From: Nitrospirota bacterium
GTDB taxonomy: Bacteria > Nitrospirota > UBA9217
Reading direction: 5' to 3'
NCBI GenBank assembly: GCA_963790205.1
Contig: CAWBNQ010000006.1
Span: 1 to 64,000, forward strand
Length of the DNA: 64,000 bases
In this document: in pieces, positions 47,850 through 60,036 of the stretch
Layout of the letters: the number at the start of each line of letters is the position of its first letter
Position numbering within the stretch: position 1 is the stretch's first letter
The notes under the pieces: model-generated
Database searches by the model: none
The model's input: the letters and a program-made list of their open reading frames with translations, nothing else
Told to the model about the DNA's origin: nothing
Made by a program: the position numbers and the translations under genes

Positions 47850-50800
47850 GATAGCCTGAACAACACGATTAATTATACCTATGACTCCGAAGGCAACAAA
47901 CTGACCGAGCAGATCAATGACAGCGCGAACAGTCTCCAGAAGACGCTCAGCTATCAGTACGATGCGCTTGATCGGCTGGCGAAGATCGTGAACCCCGATA
48001 GTACGTTTACGCAGTATACCTATGACGGGACAACGGCCAAAGACCCGAATGGAAACGCGACTACCTACAACTATGATGCATTAAGCCGACTGGCTTCGGT
48101 CATCCAGCCCGGAACTGTTACGACAACTTATGGCTACAACACAAATAATAACCTGATTTCCGTGACGGATGCGAACAACAATACGACCTCGTACAAGTAC
48201 GACGACAAAGGTAGGGTCTATCAAGTCATCTCGCCGGACACAGGAACCACAACTTACCAGTATGATCCAGCTGGAAATCTCACGAGCAAGACGGACGCGA
48301 AGGGAATTACTGTTGCATATACGTATGACGCGGCAAATAGGCTAACGCGAATCCACTTCCCGTCTGATACCGACATTGTTTACGCTTATGATAGCTGCGT
48401 GAACGGCAAAGGCCGTCTTTGCAGCATGACCGACGCGAGCGGCACGACTGCTTACGAATACTCCGCGAAAGGTCAGATCAAAAAAGAAACGCGGGCCATC
48501 GATAGCATTCAATACGTCACCCAATACACCTACGATCAGAACGGCAACTTGAAGACGATAACGTATCCCAGCAGTCGCGTGATCACGTACACCGTGTCGA
48601 ACGATAAAGTGACCGCTGTTCTGAACAACGCCGCGAACCTTGCCACGAATATCAACTATAAACCTTTCGGCGGCGTTTCCTCGCTTACCTATGGCAACAG
48701 CATTGTCGGAACCATCGGCTACGATAACCAGTATCGCGTTACGAGCATCACAGCGGGAACCGTGATGAGTCTCGGCTATCCAACGTATGATGCGAACGGG
48801 AACATCATGGCCATCAACAACGCTCTCGATCCCACTAAGAACAAGTCATTTACTTACGATGCTCTTGATCGTCTCTCGACGGCAACGGCCACCGGCATAT
48901 GGGGCAGTCTCGCCTGGACCTATGACGGAGTTGGAAACAGACAGACGGAGAACGGAAACTCGTACACTTACGTTCCCAGCAGTAATAAGCTAAGCGGCGC
49001 CAATGGCCTGTCTTATGGATTTGATAACGACGGCAATACCACGATAGAAGGCGCACGTCAGTATATCTATAATCAGAACCAAAGATTGATCCAGGTAAAC
49101 AACGGTAGCACCATTGCGTACTACACCTACAATGGCAACGGCCAGCGAGTAAAGAAGAATGTTAATGGCGTAGTAACTATCTTCCATTACAGCCTGAATG
49201 GCCAGATCATTGCCGAATCAGATAGTGCTGGCACTATTACCGCGGAATACGTTTACCTCAATGCCCGTCCGCTCGTAAAGATCGAAGGGCCGAATAACTA
49301 TTATTACATCAATGATAGTCGTGAGCTACCCCCCTTTGTAGTGCCACTTGCAATTAGAGGTTTTGACCGATCTTTGACAATTCTTGCAGCTTGAATTCAG
49401 CAGGCGTCAGGTCGTTTAAAGAGCTGTGGAGACGAACCTGCATGTAATCGACCCGCCAATTCTCGATGATCTTTCGTGCATGATCCAAGCTCATGAACCA
49501 GTTTTCGTTCAGACATTCGTCGCGGAATCTGCCGTTAAAGCTCTCCATGTAGCAATTATCAACCGGCTTGCCCGGACGAATGAACTGTAGCTTGATCCCG
49601 CGCTCATATGCCCACGCATCCAGCGCGTTGCTGATGAACTCAGGGCCATTATCAACAACGATCTGCTCGGGAAGGCCGTGAATTGCCGATATCCGGGTCA
49701 GGACCTGTGCTACCCGCTTACCGCCGATCGATGTATCTACTTCAATCCAGAAACATTCTCTTGTAAACGTATCAATGATCGGAAGCGCCCGAAACCTTCG
49801 CCCGTTATGCAGCGCATCCTGAAGAAAGTCCATGGCCCAGAGTTGATTCGGCCGCTCTGCCTTGGGAAGTTCTATTCGAGCCTGAGCTGCCAGCTCCTTC
49901 ATCCTGGTACGAAGTGCTTCGTCCTTATCCGGTTTCCGTTTGTACCGCAGGGTGTTCCGGCTCAGGTCCACGAGGCGGCTGGCGCGGCGATCACTCAGCC
50001 CAAAGCAGTCTTTGATATAGGCTGCGGCATCCCGCCGTGCCTTGGGCGTTAGAAGTTTTTTGTTACTACCGCTTTCAGTGCCTGGTTATCAAGCGTCAGA
50101 TCGGCTACGATCTGCTTCAAACGTCGGTTCTCGTCCTCGAGCTGCTTGAGGCGCCTCACCTCGCTGACGCCCATGCCGCCGTATTTTGCTTTCCAGTTGT
50201 AATAGGTGGCGTCGCTGAATCCGTATTTGCGGCAGAGCTCGGGGATCTTTATCCCTGCATCTGCCTCTTTTAAAATTTTGACAATCTGCTCCTCCGAGTA
50301 CTTGCCTTGCTTCATCTGGTGCCTCCTTTTCGAGTGAGATATTATGTCACACTCTAATCGGAAATGGCACTATTTTCGGGGGGCAGGTCCGTCGCGCTAC
50401 TCCCCAGAAGATGGTGGACAGCACGGGCACAGTTGTATGGGCTGCTGATTACAAACCTTTCGGCGAAGCGACGATCACTGTGTCAACGATCACAAACAAC
50501 CTCAGATTCCCTGGGCAGTATTATGATGTGGAGACAGGATTGAATTATAATTACTATAGGGACTATAATCCGATGACTGGGCGGTATATAGAGGCGGATC
50601 CGATTGGACTGAAGGGCGGATTAAATCTTTTTGCTTATGCAAAAGGGTCACCGATTAAGTGGGTGGATCCTCGAGGACTTTTATGTGTTCGGATCTGGCG
50701 ATCAGTCACAGGATTTGAATACCACATTTGGGATACTAGGTGGAATAAGGAGGGAGAAACAGTAGTAGATCCGGATTTACATTATGGATATTGCCAATGG

Positions 50801-51010
50801 AGTAAAATCCAGGAAGGTTGGTTAAAAGAGTATGTAAAAACTACTTATCTCTGTTGTGAATGTTTTAAATGTCAAATAAAGACTGAAGAGACTATAGAAG
50901 AAGGGCGACATGATAAGGTGGTTGACACCAGGATTACATCTATGTCATTTTGGCCTGTGGGACCGTATCATACATATATACACCAGTGTCCAACTCCATC
51001 CGATATTTAA
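47850..51010 (+). pseudogene. orphan Rhs/YD-repeat toxin interrupted by IS3
   Basis: YD repeats; removing the IS3 and one GTCG restores YYINDSRATPQKMVDS in frame; core NLRFPGQYYD.ETGLNYNYYRDY...DPIGL..GLN..AY...DPRGL, then a variable C-terminus; no proper 5' start. Confidence 0.88.
49322..50390 (-). mobile_element. IS3-family (IS407-like) element, internally deleted, 4-bp TSD GTCG
   Basis: Imperfect TIRs TGAGCTACCCCCC..TAGTGCCA / TGGCACTA..GGGGGGCAGGTCC; orfA 50049-50315; orfB (WAMDF, VDNGPEF, ESFNGRFRDECL) 49354-~50050 lacks the usual HTH segment after ELAAQ. Confidence 0.88.
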
Positions 51011-51030
51011 AGGAGCTGAAAGGAGCTGAG

Positions 51031-51513
51031 ATGATCAATCTATTTGGCTTTCTGTTAATTATCGCAGGATTTATTATACCTTTCCTAACTGATGGGCAGA
51101 TACGATCAACATTCTTTTTTTTGGTCGGATTCCTACTGCTTCTTTGGCCGAACAAGTATTTCCCGAAGATGTCCTTTTGGTTAAAATGGGGTCGAATTGG
51201 CGTGATACTAAAAATATTCGGGACATTATTTTTGATTCTTTTCTTTAAGCTTATAACACAAACATCGTTTTCTTCAAGTTATTTTGCTCTGTTAATGTTA
51301 CAGATAACCAGTTATATCTTCAGTCCTTTTGCTAGAATATTTGATATCATATTGCCAAAGGGCCAGATAACAATGCCCGATGGAAGTGCTCAATACACTA
51401 TTAGTTTTATAAGAGCTTCGGTTACTAGTTTCTGCGATATCTTGGCATATATCTTAATTGGCATCGCAATCGGTAAATTAATTGCGATGAAACAGAGTAA
51501 AAAAACAACATGA
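51031..51513 (+). CDS. putative Rhs immunity membrane protein
   Basis: Low GC, directly after the Rhs C-terminus, RBS AAGGAG, multiple TM segments. Confidence 0.6.
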   Translation: MINLFGFLLIIAGFIIPFLTDGQIRSTFFFLVGFLLLLWPNKYFPKMSFWLKWGRIGVILKIFGTLFLILFFKLITQTSFSSSYFALLMLQITSYIFSPFARIFDIILPKGQITMPDGSAQYTISFIRASVTSFCDILAYILIGIAIGKLIAMKQSKKTT

Positions 51514-51819
51514 CACTGTGGGGAGGTTGTTTTTATGCTTGCTTTTCCGTATGGTCAAAATATTCAAACGCACTGTTTTGTATGATTTTTACAGCCTCGT
51601 GCCAGCCCTGATATCATTCGCCAATTGCGGCAGCGGATGAGTCGGCGGGTGCTCCGTCTCTCCCTGTTATGCGATCAATGATGAAATAGCATGCCCTCTA
51701 CAAGTACGATTCTTCAAAAAAGGGCCTTAAAACGCGAGGTGTCGTATCTATACTTCGATCAACAAAACCCGCATGACTACAGGGCTTTTTCTCTATGGGC
51801 CGGGAACGCTAGACCGCAC

Positions 51820-52340
51820 CTTTGACGACAAAGGTCGGGTCTATCAGGTCATATCTCCGGACACCGGGACCACTACTTACCAATATGATCCTGCCGGAAA
51901 CATGATCAGTAAAGCGGATGCGAAGGGAATAACCATCTCGTACGCGTATGATGCGCTGAACCGGCTCACTAAGATCGACTTCCCCACAGACACGGACATC
52001 GTTTATGTTTATGACAACTGCCTGAACGGGAAAGGTCGCCTCTGCTCGATGACGGATGCGAGCGGGACAACTGCTTACGAATATTCGCCAAAGGGACAAG
52101 TAAAAAAGGAAACGAAGACCATCGACAGCATCCAGTACGTCACACAGTACTCCTACGATCAGAACGGAAACTTGAAGACAATGACCTACCCGAGCGGCCG
52201 CGTGATCACGTACACGCTCAGTAACGATAAAGTAACCGCTGTCTTGAACAACGCCGCAAATCTCGCAACGAATATCCAATATAAGCCGTTCGGCCCAATG
52301 TCGTCGCTCACCTATGGAAACGGTCTCGCGGGATCAATGA
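51820..52340 (+). pseudogene. second Rhs fragment
   Basis: DDKGRVYQVISPDTG...KPFG..SSLTYGN nearly duplicates ~48200-48700; ends at the IS110 target repeat. Confidence 0.85.
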
Positions 52341-52439
52341 TAAACATAGGGGACATACTATAACGCTCCCGTCAAGTGACAGTTTAGTTTTCATAATTTT
52401 CAATCAGATGGTTTTCTGCGTCGATTGAAGACGCAGCTT

Positions 52440-52670
52440 TCCTCCCGGCATTCCTGCCAGCATCGCTTTGATCGGCGAGTCTCTCGCATCCAGACGAACG
52501 ATAACTCTAATCGTTACAGCCTATTCGGCATGCCGCGCTTTCAGTTTGGCCGCCCAGAATACCTTATCCAGATTCTATCGTTCAAACGAGAGGTCCTGTA
52601 TTGTCCCCACCGAGGTCGTAGCCTCAACGTAGTGTCCCGGGCTCTCTCGCCGAAATTGGTTTTTTACGTT
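52440..52670 (-). ncRNA. putative bridge/seek RNA of the IS110 element
   Basis: Nested stems (CGGCGAG/CTCGCCG, CTCTCG/CGAGAG, GAACGATA/TATCGTTC) and a loop carrying 12-nt and 7-nt matches to the two insertion flanks; boundaries approximate. Confidence 0.7.
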
Positions 52671-52677
52671 TCACGGA

Positions 52678-53985
52678 TCATGCCGCTTTTTTATTCGCGG
52701 CCTCATCCTCCTGTTTGAGATATTTCGGATCAAAGCATTCTTTTTTTTTCATCAGCGTCCAAGCGATAACCAGGAGCTTCGCGGCCAGCTTGACGCGCAT
52801 CTTTGTGACGATGCCTTTCTCCTTTGCCCGGCCCTTGAGCTTGTTCGTAAAGTAGGTGATAAAGTCCTTGTTCTTAAGCGAGGCGATAAATGCCGCCTGA
52901 TACAGTCCGTAGCGGAGATCGGCCTTGCCTTGCTTGGAGATGACCGGTATCGCGCTGGTGGACTTCTTGCCACTTCGATCCGCGCACAGGTCGAGGCCTG
53001 CCATTTTCAATACCTGCTTGGCGCTCGTAAAGCGGCGTGGATTTCCAATGGCCCCAAGCACCTTTGAGGAAACATCCGGTCCGAACCCCGGAATGCTCAG
53101 CAAGTAGGTGTACTCCGGAAATTCCATGCAGGCATCTTCGAGTTTTTCCTCCACCGACTTGATGGTTTGCCTGATCTGCTTCAGGCCGTCCACCATGACT
53201 TGAGCTTCGAAAGACGCCGCTTCTCCCATAGTGCAGCCGATGGAATCAACCGCGGCCCTCCAGATCATTCCCACCCTGCGGCCCTTCGCCAGCGTCATTT
53301 TGCCCGGCGCGACGGTGCGGCAGAAGGCATCGTATTCCATGCCGGCGATCTCCGAGGGGTCAAGACATTCCCTTACCACCGTCAGGGTTTCCGATGGGCC
53401 GTAGTGTTGGTCCAACTCGGGGAAATACTGCGCGATGAGGTGATTGCGAACACATACGCTCATGCCGTGTTCCCTTCTCTTTAAACGCCGTTTGAGTGCG
53501 ATCAGGACGCGCACGTTCCGCAGTGTCATCAGGGGGTATTCGTAAAACAGGCACTTCCCCTGGGCGATAAGATCTGCGACGTTTGCCGCGTCTTTGACGT
53601 CATGTTTGTCCCAGCGGCCGTCCAGAAGCTGCCGGTTGTTCTTGACCGCGACGCCTCCCACGAGAACGACCATGTGCCCGCACTTGATCAGATGCTCCGC
53701 CAGGGGCTTGTGATAGTTCGCCGTCGGCTCGATTCCGAAAACGACCGTGGTCAGGCTATATTGAACTTTGATTCGCTCGACATAGGCGAGCAGCTTTTGA
53801 AAGCCTTCAAGCGTGTTGTCAAAGACCAGATTCTTAACCAGCGTTTTTCCGCGTGCCGTACCGAAAAAAGCGTTGTGCTTCTCCTTGGCCGCGTCAATGC
53901 CGACGATCAAATGCTTTTCCGAACCGCGAATTTCTTTCTTCAGTTGAAGAAACTGCTCAAGTCTGATATCATCTACATAATTCAT
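52678..53985 (-). CDS. IS110-family recombinase/transposase
   Basis: VGIDAAK, GIEPT, KHDVKDA (DEDD); SIPGFG, AGL.....SG serine; ISKQG...LR. Confidence 0.93.
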   Translation of the reverse strand: MNYVDDIRLEQFLQLKKEIRGSEKHLIVGIDAAKEKHNAFFGTARGKTLVKNLVFDNTLEGFQKLLAYVERIKVQYSLTTVVFGIEPTANYHKPLAEHLIKCGHMVVLVGGVAVKNNRQLLDGRWDKHDVKDAANVADLIAQGKCLFYEYPLMTLRNVRVLIALKRRLKRREHGMSVCVRNHLIAQYFPELDQHYGPSETLTVVRECLDPSEIAGMEYDAFCRTVAPGKMTLAKGRRVGMIWRAAVDSIGCTMGEAASFEAQVMVDGLKQIRQTIKSVEEKLEDACMEFPEYTYLLSIPGFGPDVSSKVLGAIGNPRRFTSAKQVLKMAGLDLCADRSGKKSTSAIPVISKQGKADLRYGLYQAAFIASLKNKDFITYFTNKLKGRAKEKGIVTKMRVKLAAKLLVIAWTLMKKKECFDPKYLKQEDEAANKKAA

Positions 53986-54159
53986 AGGAACCTCCTGCCA
54001 CAAGAATTTAGTTTCGCTATAAACTTATTCTTAGCAGGAGGTTTCTATTTTGGGTAGTCTTGAAGATAATTTTCCCTATACTTTAATGGGAGAATCTAAC
54101 CTCATGCTCTACCCATATATAACGTAGTGTCCGAAGTGTACTTTCGGACGAAGTCTAAC

Positions 54160-55264
54160 TAATACAAACGCACTAAGTAATGTTACAAAGTCGCCTGACT
54201 TTGTGCTTTGACCACGAGTCAAGCGTCCTTTGGACCGTTGCCCAGATTGCGTCAAGGTTATCAAACCACCGGTTGGTAGTTGATTCATAGCGAATCTGGC
54301 GCCATATGCGTTCCTGCATATTCAAGGCAGGCTGATATGGTGGTAAGTACACAATCCGGAGTCGTTTATGCTTTCTGAGAAACTCCCGGATTGGGTCACC
54401 CCTATGCCAACGAGCTCGGTCAACATACAGCCAGATAGTGTAGCCACGAAGCTGGCTATAAAGGTGCCGCAGCACTTTGAGAAAACCTTCTCGGTTGCCA
54501 CGTTCCGTTTGGATGACGCCGGCACGAGCCAGAAGAGGAGCCACCCAGCCGGAAACATTCAAACGTTTCTGATGCTGGCTGGTTGTCGGCACTTTCAACC
54601 GTTTCCCGATGAGCGCCCAGCCGCGGCCAAGCCGAGGGTGCAGAGTAAAACCGCATTCGTCCTGAAAAACCACAGTTTCTTTAGGACCCAGCGTTTTGAG
54701 TTTTTTTTAGGCTCCTGGCAAACTTCTTCGCGTCTTCTGCCTTTGCCTGGAGATAAACGTGATTGGCTCGCTTTAACCGATACCCAAGTTGATGCATCCA
54801 GTATTGGGCCTGACGGACTTTCAGCTTTATCCCGAACTGGCGCTGTAAATGAGTTGCCAAAGTGGGGCCATCCCATCGAATACGATTTAAGCCGAACTTC
54901 TGGGGCGATTCCTCCAGTTGAAGCTCTAGCTGAGCTACGATCTTAGGAGTCATCCGAACTGGACGGCCTGACTGCTTTTTCGGGACAAGGGCTTCTACTC
55001 CGTCCTTGTTTACCGCCCGCGTCCAGCGGTTTACGTTCATCCGGGTCTGGCCTAGGACTTCTGAGATCCACCCCGGTCGTTGACCCTCCATTACCAAGAG
55101 GAGGGTAGCTATCTTTATGCCGATCCAAGCTCCTGGCACCTTCTCTGCGAGGGCCAGCAATTGCTCTTTGGACACCTTTATTGGGCTTGCAGGGGATGTT
55201 TTCATGCCCCCAGAATAACATAAAGTATGGTTAAAGTGTAACAATATTTACTGCGTTTGTATTA
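54160..55264 (-). mobile_element. IS630-family element with split (frameshifted) transposase, TA target
   Basis: 27-bp TIRs TAATACAAACGCACTAAGTAATGTTAC / GTAACAATATTTACTGCGTTTGTATTA; orfA 54681-55205 (HTH), orfB from 54173 (FQDE, DRARWH, LPPYQPALNMQERIW); A8 run at the overlap. Confidence 0.9.
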
Positions 55265-55279
55265 ATTGGAGAATATCGC

Positions 55280-56830
55280 GTGCCTTATTGTCCAAATCCG
55301 GAGTGCCCGTTCAGAAAACGCTTCGGCGAATCCGCCGAGTACAACCAGGGCACGGCCACGTGTTCTGATTGCGGCACGGCGCTTGTAGCCGATGATCCGC
55401 TCGGGAGGACGGTCAAGCAGAAGAAGGAATTCAGGATGCGCGATGTCCATAAACGCCTCCTGTGGACGCTGGCTCTCCTGGGCTTCTGGACCATCGTGCG
55501 CCATTTTCCCCTGCCGGGCCTCGAGGGTGAAGGCCTGATGCGATGGGCGGCATTGGCGGGGAACCTGGGTCTTCGTGTTTCTCTATTCTCTTTAGGCCTC
55601 ATGCCATACATCACTGCCTGCGTTATCGTTGAGGTCGCCGCATTGCTCGTGCCCCCGTTCAAACAATGGCGTTCCAAGGGCGGGGCGCCTGGTAGAGCGC
55701 GGCTTACACGGGCCGCGATTTTTTTAACTGTTGTGATCGGGATCGTCCACGGCCGCGCTCTCGTTTGGCAATTAGGCAGTATGGCCGATGGTCACGTGCT
55801 TGTTGACAACGGGACGGCATTCAAGTCGCTCCTCGTCCTGACGCTCGTTGCCGCGATGTTTTTTATCATCTGGATAGCCGGTCAGATATCTACACGGGGG
55901 TGCGGTCACGGAATCAGCTTGATACTACTGTCCGGTATGGTGGGAGGGATCCCGCACGACTTCGTGAATGCCCTGCACCTCTACAAGAAAGCGCTTTCCT
56001 CCCCTCAATTTATCATGCCAATGGTGGCGCTTGCCGGCGCGATCATGCTGATAGTCTATATAGAGAGAAGCACCAGGCAAGTTCCGATACGGTATGCCGA
56101 CGGTACGGAGACAACGTTTCCCATTAAACTGACCACTGCCGGAACAACACCGGTTTCGTGGGCGTATTCACTTCTCGTGATCCCCATTTTATTCGTGCCT
56201 TTCAATGTAGCCATTAATGCGGCAACCCGTCCTGTTTCGGCCTGGATCACAGGACATCTCTATCAGGGCTCGCCTGTACACACCGCGGCGAGCGCCATCC
56301 TGATCTTTGTCCTTTACTTTGTTTTTTCGGCCCTGTTCCACAATCCGCGCGAGATGCTCGACTATCTCAGAGAAAGAAATGCATCCGTTCTTCCGGACGA
56401 GACAGAAGGAAAACGGGATATCTACCGGGGATTGGAAGGCATGGCATTTATCGGCAGCTTGTATCTGGTCCTCGTGTTTTTGTCGCTTCAGGTTATCTGG
56501 TGGCTGTTGCAGACGGAGGTCACCCCGGTCAACGGGGTCTCGTTGATCGTAGCAGTATGCATAGCGCTCGATCTGACCGGCGAACTGCTTTTCCGATGGC
56601 GCTCGGACAGCCTTGTACGCATTGCGGAATTCCACGAACCCTGGAAAGCCGGCCTGCTTCGCTCTCTTTTGGAAAAAGAAAAGGTACCCTGTATCGTACG
56701 GGGATATTATCACCGGTCCCTTCTGTATCTATTCGGCCCCTACATAGAGATGCCCGTTCTTGTCGCAGGAAGCAATGAAAACGCCGCGCGGGACGTAATG
56801 AGAAAATACATTGGATCATCTCCTTCTTGA
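55280..56830 (+). CDS. divergent SecY paralog with N-terminal Zn-ribbon and C-terminal DUF2007-like domain
   Basis: Colinear SecY motifs FPLPG, SLFSLGLMPYITA, WIAGQISTRGCGHGISLI, ERSTRQVPIRYA, PIKLTTAGTTP, NPREM, GVSLIVAV; CPNPEC..CSDC at the N-terminus; AGLLRSLLEKEKVPCIVRG at the C-terminus. Confidence 0.8.
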   Translation: MPYCPNPECPFRKRFGESAEYNQGTATCSDCGTALVADDPLGRTVKQKKEFRMRDVHKRLLWTLALLGFWTIVRHFPLPGLEGEGLMRWAALAGNLGLRVSLFSLGLMPYITACVIVEVAALLVPPFKQWRSKGGAPGRARLTRAAIFLTVVIGIVHGRALVWQLGSMADGHVLVDNGTAFKSLLVLTLVAAMFFIIWIAGQISTRGCGHGISLILLSGMVGGIPHDFVNALHLYKKALSSPQFIMPMVALAGAIMLIVYIERSTRQVPIRYADGTETTFPIKLTTAGTTPVSWAYSLLVIPILFVPFNVAINAATRPVSAWITGHLYQGSPVHTAASAILIFVLYFVFSALFHNPREMLDYLRERNASVLPDETEGKRDIYRGLEGMAFIGSLYLVLVFLSLQVIWWLLQTEVTPVNGVSLIVAVCIALDLTGELLFRWRSDSLVRIAEFHEPWKAGLLRSLLEKEKVPCIVRGYYHRSLLYLFGPYIEMPVLVAGSNENAARDVMRKYIGSSPS

Positions 56831-56932
56831 GTGGGTCGAAAAGACAGATGATGTCAACCGAGACAACACGCTTCCAGCTGCTTCAACTGGTCGCTTGTGG
56901 ATTTTTTTTGCACATCCCTTTCGCGTCCTGAA

Positions 56933-57268
56933 TGAAATTTCTGACCCGTCTAAGGCCACGTCCGCTCGCCCGTGCAAACTCGGCCTGCGGCCTCAGACAT
57001 GCGCGTTCGCCCTTCGGGACGCTGCCTTAGGCCTTGACGGGTGCCCAGAAATTTCATAGGGCCGCTCCAGGGACGTGCGGGGTTTGGGGTAAACCCCATG
57101 CGAAGATCCAGGCAGGCGACCGAGTCCGAGGGTGAAGCATTTCGGACTGTCTGAGCCCGAAGGGCGAGTTTCCGAAATGTACCGAGGGCGACCGAGCATG
57201 CCGTAAAGGATATTCGCCGGGTGCCCTTCTTTGGGTCACCTTTCTTGGGCACGCAAGAAAGGTGACAA
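56933..57268. repeat. ~335-bp highly structured non-coding element
   Basis: Three long hairpins; internal inverted pair AAACTCG..CTCAGACA / TGTCTGAG..CGAGTTT; terminal GTCACCTTTCTTG-GGCACG-CAAGAAAGGTGAC. Confidence 0.7.
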
Positions 57269-57340
57269 GGGCAAATATATCATTAACATGACCCGCTCAG
57301 ATGGGAGAAGACCCAATACTTTAATCAGGAGTGAATGACC

Positions 57341-57649
57341 ATGATCAACGTCGTAGCTTCGATCCGGGTGAAGGCAGGCAAGCTTTCCGAGTATCTTGCG
57401 ATCCTGAAAGCCAATATGCACGTAGTTCGAAAGGAAAAGGGATGTATCGAATACGTCCCCACAATCGACGTTGACTCACAACTGCCGCCGCAGGTCCTCG
57501 ATAAGAATTGCGTCACTCTTCTTGAGAGGTGGGAGAGCCTGGAAGCGCTCCATGCGCATCTCGCATCGCCCCATATGCTGGCTTACCGGGAAAAGGTGAA
57601 GGACCTGGTCGAGAGTGTAACGCTCAAAGTACTGCAGGAGGTAAAGTAA
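57341..57649 (+). CDS. putative quinol monooxygenase (ABM family), copy 1
   Basis: V..EKGCIEY...LLERWESLEALHAHLASPHM. Confidence 0.88.
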   Translation: MINVVASIRVKAGKLSEYLAILKANMHVVRKEKGCIEYVPTIDVDSQLPPQVLDKNCVTLLERWESLEALHAHLASPHMLAYREKVKDLVESVTLKVLQEVK

Positions 57650-59545: not shown

Positions 59546-59727
59546 TTCGTGGAAGCATTCGAGGGACGTTGTGTCCGAAAGTGACTTTATTGTCCAAATC
59601 CGGAGTGCCCGTTCAGAAGACGCTTTGGCGAGTCCGCCGGCTCTTGACATGGTTTCCTACAGGACTTTTAGGAGTTCATCTCACGGCCTGATATTTTTTT
59701 ATTCAATTATCAAATGAGGAGCCGACC

Positions 59728-60036
59728 ATGATCAACGTTGTAGCTTCGATCCGGGTGAAGGCAGGCAAGCTTTCCGAGTATCTTGCGATCCTGAAAGCCA
59801 ATATGCCAGCGGTGAAAAGGGAAAAGGGATGTATCGAATACGTCCCCACAATCGACGTTGACACAAAACTGCCGCCGCAGGTCCTCGATAAGAATTGCGT
59901 CACTCTTCTTGAGAGGTGGGAGAGCCTGGAAGCACTCCATGCGCATCTCGCATCGCCTCATATGCTGGATTACCGGGAAAAAGTGAAGGACATGGTCGAG
60001 AGTGTAACGGTCAAAGTAGTGCAGGAAGTCAAATGA
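59728..60036 (+). CDS. putative quinol monooxygenase (ABM family), copy 2
   Basis: About 90% identical to 57341-57649. Confidence 0.88.
   Translation: MINVVASIRVKAGKLSEYLAILKANMPAVKREKGCIEYVPTIDVDTKLPPQVLDKNCVTLLERWESLEALHAHLASPHMLDYREKVKDMVESVTVKVVQEVK

Follow-up and report, generated by a model that had tools for sequence, protein, structure and literature searches.

A divergent extra SecY with fused zinc-ribbon and DUF2007 modules, possibly a translocon-fold channel that corks itself

Here we report that a stretch of 64,000 nucleotides from a Nitrospirota bacterium (hereafter the window) encodes an extra SecY, which we propose, with moderate confidence, to be a gated channel or sensor that is uncoupled from SecA and ribosomes and corked by a loop of its own. 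The proposal builds on what was observed of the protein's fold, its losses, its conservation, the selection acting on it and its coexistence with a normal secY, and from these the corking is predicted. To our knowledge SecY is universal and nearly always single-copy, and SecY2, the described bacterial SecY duplicate, is still a SecA-driven exporter. At least 100 divergent clusters without the plug and the docking loops, and with a cork of their own, would show that the translocon fold has been re-used beyond motor-driven export.

An extra SecY beside a canonical one

The protein consists, in this order, of a zinc ribbon, a ten-helix SecY body and a DUF2007 domain, and its features lie in the window as follows.

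55280..56830, + strand: SecY paralog gene, a single uninterrupted open reading frame of 516 aa with a GTG start and no internal stop
55280..55393, + strand: zinc-ribbon-like N-terminal module, residues 1-38 (C4, C9, C28, C31), with the motifs C4-P-N-P-E-C9 and C28-S-D-C31
55433..56611, + strand: SecY body, TM1-TM10, residues 52-444 (Foldseek, VIA-align)
55520..55576, + strand: shortened, unconserved plug region, residues 81-99 (conservation 0.22)
55916..55918, + strand: S213, equivalent to E. coli S188 beside pore-ring I187, and the best coupling partner of H478
56063..56128, + strand: C4 (TM6/7) loop, residues 262-283, with the nine-residue tip holding R255/R256 deleted (22 versus 31 aa)
56390..56416, + strand: C5 (TM8/9) loop segment LPDETEGKR, residues 371-379, in place of PGIRPG (alignment with E. 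coli)
56612..56809, + strand: DUF2007 domain, residues 445-510 (Pfam; model match to 2hfv)
56699..56749, + strand: conserved loop, residues 474-490 (R-G-Y-Y-H-R-S-L-L-Y-L-F-G-P-Y-I-E), the proposed cork (conservation, motif)

An earlier, sequence-only reading of the window had described a SecY body, a CPxxxC...CxxC N-terminus and a small C-terminal DUF2007-like domain, and all three were recovered. The protein belongs to the SecY/Sec61-alpha fold family (PF00344), which Pfam matched at residues 101-432 (E 1.2e-49; 169.8 bits, cut-off 32.2), while DUF2007 (PF09413) was matched at residues 447-509 (E 1.3e-5) with 25.7 bits, exactly the cut-off. The AF2 model of the full-length paralog (pLDDT 86.8, pTM 0.82) reached TM-scores of 0.82-0.85, by target length, when compared with SecY structures in Foldseek (E 1.6e-18), and VIA-align superposed it on 8ya3_Y with a Z of 31.5 and an rmsd of 2.6 Å across 378 residues. 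Folded alone, the DUF2007 domain resembled 2hfv (Z 9.0, rmsd 2.9 Å, 74 residues aligned), with PrgK/EscJ domains tying. Judging from its cysteine motifs the N-terminal module, which is missing in some family members, probably binds a metal.

Two SecY matches were found in the genome, which is 98% complete. The second is a canonical secY with PGIRPG on contig C10, located between rplO and map in the spc operon; this gene fills the spc-operon secY role and the paralog is an extra copy, which disposes of the concern, raised with the sequence-only reading, that it might be the only secY of its genome. A canonical secY was likewise present in 25 of the 25 genomes where the paralog was found. The genome further encodes one secA and one secE, and its one SecD P1-head match lies in a separate 535-aa frame. 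Asp1 had no match in this 98% complete genome, the same search being positive in a Lactococcus control, and neither secA2 nor asp genes appeared among the scanned neighbours, as the earlier reading had stated.

Genomic setting of the paralog

Two features lie immediately upstream of the gene.

55268..55271, + strand: GGAG, resembling a ribosome-binding site, 8 bases 5' of the GTG and kept in 4 of 4 close-relative rows
54158..55264, - strand: IS630-type element, ending 15 bp 5' of the paralog start codon

The GTG start codon is ATG at the same codon in close relatives, the GC content of the gene is 0.547 (genome, 0.551), and a promoter scan for the paralog gave no signal exceeding chance. At least eight near-identical copies of the IS630-type element are present in the genome, and the copy in the window adjoins a multi-copy IS110 (about 52400-54142); this IS630 insertion, outside the system itself, may change the expression of the paralog in this strain.

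The neighbours of the paralog in the window include insertion sequences and two genes, one with an ABM domain and one of DUF3857/transglutaminase type, with no ribosomal genes found among them by Pfam, in agreement with its earlier placement outside any ribosomal operon. The gene order paralog-ABM-DUF3857-like recurs in L052. The first copy of the ABM-domain gene occupies 57335-57649, and a second copy (59728-60036) is preceded, at 59587-59639, by 53 bp that repeat the opening codons of the paralog at 94% identity; together the 53-bp copy and the second ABM-domain gene are likely the remnant of a local duplication. Further upstream, 47988-52363 holds pieces of an Rhs/YD-repeat gene interrupted by an IS3-like element (49354-50315), including a C-terminal piece (50411-51010) and an orphan Rhs fragment, and a small membrane ORF in this region (50950-51513) may be an immunity candidate. 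Non-coding repeats lie at 56903-57268, and copies 84-93% identical to them occur at several other genome sites.

A patchy family under purifying selection

A word search returned about 55 full-length relatives with 36-86% identity. Among the best 150 clusters (50% identity), 107 combined a SecY-like body with a DUF2007 part; the zinc ribbon was also present in 73 of these 107, and Gx[RK]PG was found in none of them. With the C-terminal region as query, only two further proteins came up. The named records belong to Nitrospirota, Thermodesulfobacteriota or deltaproteobacteria, and Myxococcota, with Hyalangium rubrum (P0130) as a cultured host, and the Atlas clusters point tentatively to Acidobacteriota as well (score 0.88). 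The spread is patchy: the paralog was detected in 3 of the 301 genomes of its own phylum, in at least 18 of 151 genomes of G302's phylum (a lower bound, with 10 candidates per genome scored at first), and also in G303-G306. Of 401 genomes from G305's phylum, the centre genome alone matched.

Set in a tree with SecY and SecY2, as had been suggested beforehand, the family forms its own branch. In a quick tree of the SecY part, a branch with an SH-aLRT of 92 set 58 family rows apart, the three SecY2-like rows lying outside, and in a second quick tree without the SecY2-like rows the family branch received an SH-aLRT of 100; both trees are unrooted and have long branches, and no donor is claimed. 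For the trees the families were thinned to 70%, or 39 rows were picked by hand; L085 (which holds an X), L083 and L075 were left out of alignment A3, and fragments and rows more than 90% identical were removed from the set used to compare loops and plug.

By dN/dS the family is under purifying selection, with values of 0.14-0.30 in 10 of 10 pairs and, by region in two pairs, 0.04-0.09 for DUF2007 versus 0.28-0.31 for the SecY body. The homologs of like architecture on whose existence and constraint the sequence-only reading depended are thus numerous and constrained, and architecture and motif are retained across phyla down to about 22% identity. For the family these results contradict a functionless, decaying secY duplicate, a reading we find scarcely credible, although four copies are split by frameshifts or stops (L012, L052, L084, L093), which may be assembly errors, and the IS630-type element sits just upstream of the gene here.

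Loss of docking loops, plug and a pore-ring residue

For loops and plug, 97 family rows were compared with 61 canonical rows, using E. coli numbering; the residue numbers of the E. coli pore ring are those we take to be standard. The two sequence features stressed earlier, LPDETEGKR instead of PGIRPG and a short plug region, were both borne out: residues 371-379 align with the E. coli PGIRPG segment, and the plug segment has 28 aa in the window's protein versus 40 (family median 30, range 22-48), with the FSGG motif absent from that of the family. The losses go further than that list: the C4 tip is missing, the plug is shorter by about 10 residues, and an isoleucine of the pore ring is gone. 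The C4 segment has a median of 22 aa (19 in a myxobacterial-like group) versus 31 in canonical SecY, R255/R256 are gone, and its net charge is 1.5 versus 7. At the pore-ring I278 position, where 143 of 148 canonical rows have I, most of the 249 family rows have S, E, D, T or G; the window's protein has S293 there, and its remaining five pore-ring positions are hydrophobic.

R255, R256 and R357 are reported to be common docking sites for the ribosome, FtsY and SecA (PMC3575545), and a role of the pore ring has likewise been reported (PMC8082313). The loss of the GIRPG arginine, to which the sequence-only reading had pointed, is real (GxRPG in 0 of 97 family members versus 52 of 61 canonical SecY), but as a sign of lost export it fails when taken alone, because staphylococcal SecY2 in the alignment lacks the C5 arginine too (GINPG) and SecY2 is an exporter. 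A stronger case than that of R357 by itself comes from the C4 tip, the C5 motif and the plug having been lost together. SecY without its plug is reported to leak water and ions (PMC2585858), plug deletion being described as tolerated but leaky (PMC2585858; 10.1101/2020.12.20.422553), and therefore another seal is needed. Where E. coli has G240, the core family group mostly has S, T or A, which decides nothing on SecE binding.

The DUF2007 loop as a predicted cork

Of 18 regions scored for conservation, loop 474-490 came first (0.70; next 0.57). Its motif, R-x-LLYFFGP, was found in 137 of 147 rows with a mean identity of 24%, and R479 and P487 are each at 99% in these rows. One myxobacterial-like group has kept the loop motif while its DUF2007 fold decayed, and the loops of this genome's free DUF2007 proteins are unrelated to the cork motif. 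The extra domains had earlier been called an addition to SecY; they are indeed present, but DUF2007 is no mere appendage, since its loop is the most conserved part of the protein and likely lies in the channel mouth. On the SecY side, Q93 is replaced by E in 240 of 249 family rows and Q419 by E in 219 of 249, and D431 is found in 249 of 249; by helical period the three would lie towards the cytoplasm, on the helix faces that carry I86 and I408 of the pore ring.

Mean-field coupling of 249 rows (174 effective sequences) ranked S213-H478 first of 118,341 pairs (z 11.3), above such plausible within-domain pairs as A19-D30, G158-V190 and F451-V493. Further couplings point from the loop region to the ends of TM2, TM5 and TM7, namely F127-Y488 (rank 18), H210-E490 (63) and T286-Y483 (137); noise is visible, however, as G158-Y477 and A192-E490 are out of keeping with this picture and many lower-ranked pairs are noise-like at about 174 effective sequences. 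Positions 213 and 478 were S/H in 132 of 195 rows and A/H in two (phi 0.87; next of 100 columns, 0.62). Position 213 changed 15 times on the tree, and a tree-aware test of S213/H478, with five independent pairs changing the same way, none the opposite way and two unchanged, was not significant (p 0.0625).

The model fits substrate-engaged SecY (Z 29-31.5, rmsd 2.2-2.9 Å) better than resting SecY (Z 23, rmsd 3.9-4.1 Å) at equal identity, a comparison that has no canonical-SecY model as control and draws its open and resting structures from different species. The pTM of 0.82 exceeds the share, 0.76, that the SecY body takes up, which suggests, as a rough guide, that an extra domain is firmly placed. 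Loop confidence fell only slightly when the domain was folded by itself, to 82/69 from 92/74 in the full-length model, the two being built from different alignments. The likeness of the model to gate-open states would also suit a motor-free insertase, holdase or lipid-facing scaffold, with its lateral gate propped open and its pore sealed, and so would the stronger conservation of the N-terminal half (TM2, TM5) over TM6, TM8 and TM9, together with the reported likeness of SecY halves to YidC (10.1101/2020.12.20.422553). Such a function appears improbable to us, since the loop in the funnel would bar entry from the cytoplasm and the link to yidC is limited to a single neighbour gene (L011).

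We also considered mimicry of SecA by the loop, which starts with (L/V)RGY and so recalls the LRGYGQKDP of the genome's SecA, presumably the tip of the two-helix finger. It was set aside and is kept only as a lead, because Y476 is 43% conserved and RG ends an ordinary DUF2007 strand.

Origin of the modules and fusion to SecD

The same genome encodes a 154-aa protein (L119, 1363-1827) made of a zinc ribbon and DUF2007 that starts CPxC..EYRxGF..C..C, the likeness between its zinc ribbon and that of the paralog being weak (pairwise E 5e-4, genome-wide E 0.1). In Nitrospirota records (L014-L020, L102-L116) the family's zinc ribbon (CPNPxC...CSDCG) is also carried as a cap by RDD, DUF898 and small membrane proteins. 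In these capped proteins a second zinc ribbon often comes next, and a zinc-ribbon membrane protein is also encoded in this genome (G000:C1 near 383940). The simplest history, as far as sequence comparison can suggest one, would be that a secY copy was set between, or joined to, two common cytoplasmic modules.

In a related subfamily, represented by P0262 (also P0289), an 854-aa fusion combines SecD P1 domains, a SecY-like body and the DUF2007 loop motif; the Atlas cluster nearest to P0262 has 140 members, of which 100% have SecDF_P1_head and 92% SecY. With the P1 domains placed ahead of the SecY-like body in P0262 and this cluster, the fusion speaks for a specialised exporter in which a dedicated substrate displaces the cork and SecDF or diffusion, not SecA, drives the outward movement, and so do the conserved fold, the lateral-gate GxxP motifs and the five of six pore-ring positions kept hydrophobic. 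Yet in the fusion Pfam recognised SecD by its periplasmic parts only, the proton-conducting helices not being found; one query detected no such fusion in 401 genomes of G302's phylum; and no secA2, asp1 or substrate gene is nearby or conserved. We therefore regard a specialised exporter as rather unlikely.

The fusion also lends itself to an opposite direction of travel. A turned-around translocon would take in or sense unfolded periplasmic polypeptide and, by release of the DUF2007 cork, either signal its presence to the cytoplasm or hand it over; we consider this unlikely and raise it because the periplasmic plug is gone, the predicted cork faces the cytoplasm and, in the related subfamily, the SecD head that catches peptides is fused on. 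If true, the protein would be a bacterial SecY-based retro-translocon or envelope-stress receptor.

Neighbourhoods across lineages

The neighbourhood analysis proposed with the sequence-only reading gave no gene conserved across lineages at the loci scanned and no partner pointing to a cargo or a signal, and secA2, asp genes and a serine-rich substrate were absent among the scanned neighbours. In one sub-lineage (L006, L007, L012, L072, L083, L087) the gene upstream of the paralog encodes a membrane protein of 275-470 aa that matches TPR weakly, often with a MoxR-like AAA ATPase pair further upstream. At L011:9437-10996 yidC lies about 0.9 kb downstream of the paralog on the opposite strand, the one such case.

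Mobile elements adjoin the paralog at several loci, PADLOC candidate defence genes were found near it in four (L005, L008, L053, L090), and L003 has a toxin-antitoxin pair. Such patchy, solitary genes beside mobile and candidate defence elements could encode a decoy or brake: a SecY look-alike that is always occupied would titrate SecE away, or would catch toxins and phage proteins directed at the translocon. Some contact-dependent toxins are reported to enter via SecY (PMC7858069). The paralog itself had no PADLOC match, however, nor had most of the 106 neighbours scanned; several of the matches were to generic domains, the counts have no background rate, and many neighbours are metabolic genes, so that we hold a decoy to be quite unlikely.

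A self-corked translocon fold

The repurposed channel or sensor, possibly of a new family, put forward by the sequence-only reading is supported by the presence of a second, canonical secY and of many constrained homologs, while the role of the channel itself is a prediction. In the self-corked SecY that we favour, the plug is lost along with both loops at which SecA, the ribosome and FtsY dock, and the basic-then-hydrophobic loop 474-490 would occupy the place of the translocating chain in the cytoplasmic funnel. There it could pair with the funnel-side acids E118, D431 and E435 and with S213, and would seal the plugless pore from the cytoplasmic side. As guesses, the cork might come loose when the DUF2007 or zinc-ribbon module senses a signal or when a peptide arrives from the periplasm, and SecE might be borrowed from the housekeeping translocon. 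The family, whose members are currently annotated as SecY or hypothetical, is a natural test of how a plugless SecY is sealed and of whether SecY can function without SecA or ribosome, and DUF2007 would gain its first testable role.

Comparison with known systems

In the titles and abstract starts of papers on SecY paralogs, SecY2 and DUF2007 from outside the subscription journals, no description of the SecY plus DUF2007 architecture was found. The paralog qualifies neither as housekeeping SecY nor as SecY2, scoring 160.1 against a cut-off of 253.6 with TIGR00967 (housekeeping SecY), and 50.8 against 249.6 and 74.2 against 353 with the SecY2 profiles TIGR02920 and PRK12417.

With housekeeping SecY (PF00344, TIGR00967; 5abb from E. 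coli, 6itc/8ya3 of Geobacillus type, 5aww from T. thermophilus) it shares the ten-helix fold at about 25-30% identity, TM2 GxxPY, TM5 GxGxG, TM7 GxxP and the TM10 aspartate. Unlike housekeeping SecY, it has no plug helix motif, a deleted C4 tip, no GxRPG, one polar pore-ring residue, Q93E and Q419E, and a fused zinc ribbon and DUF2007, and it is encoded outside the spc operon.

Accessory SecY2, reported to be an exporter (10.1101/202358; PMC5076819), is likewise a second, divergent SecY beside the canonical one and without the C5 arginine. Unlike the paralog, SecY2 retains G-x-x-PG and carries no fused domain in the cytoplasm, and it comes with SecA2, Asp1 and a serine-rich substrate, whereas the paralog is without these and on a separate branch.

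Other divergent SecY proteins were also seen. P0271, a SecY with an intact plug, a degenerate C5 loop and a 100-aa tail, was rejected as an intermediate: the tree places it among the canonical SecY proteins, and neither Pfam DUF2007 nor the family profile matched its tail. It is possibly an independent paralog. P0236, P0252, P0282, P0260 and P0267 are divergent SecY-like proteins with no tail and mostly no GxRPG that stand apart from the family in the tree. On plasmid-labelled records, secY genes occur among hypothetical genes at L126:3004-4275 (Photobacterium damselae, 30% identity to canonical) and L128:127-1440 (Streptomyces), both outside a ribosomal operon within the stretch seen.

The periplasmic P1 domain of SecDF (PF22599, PF21760), fused ahead of the SecY-like body in the related subfamily, is absent from the window's protein. 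Finally, the small zinc-ribbon plus DUF2007 proteins (PF09413; 2hfv; L119) have the same two modules in the same order as the paralog, which differs from them in carrying a SecY body between the modules and in having, where their DUF2007 loop is variable, a fixed hydrophobic motif.
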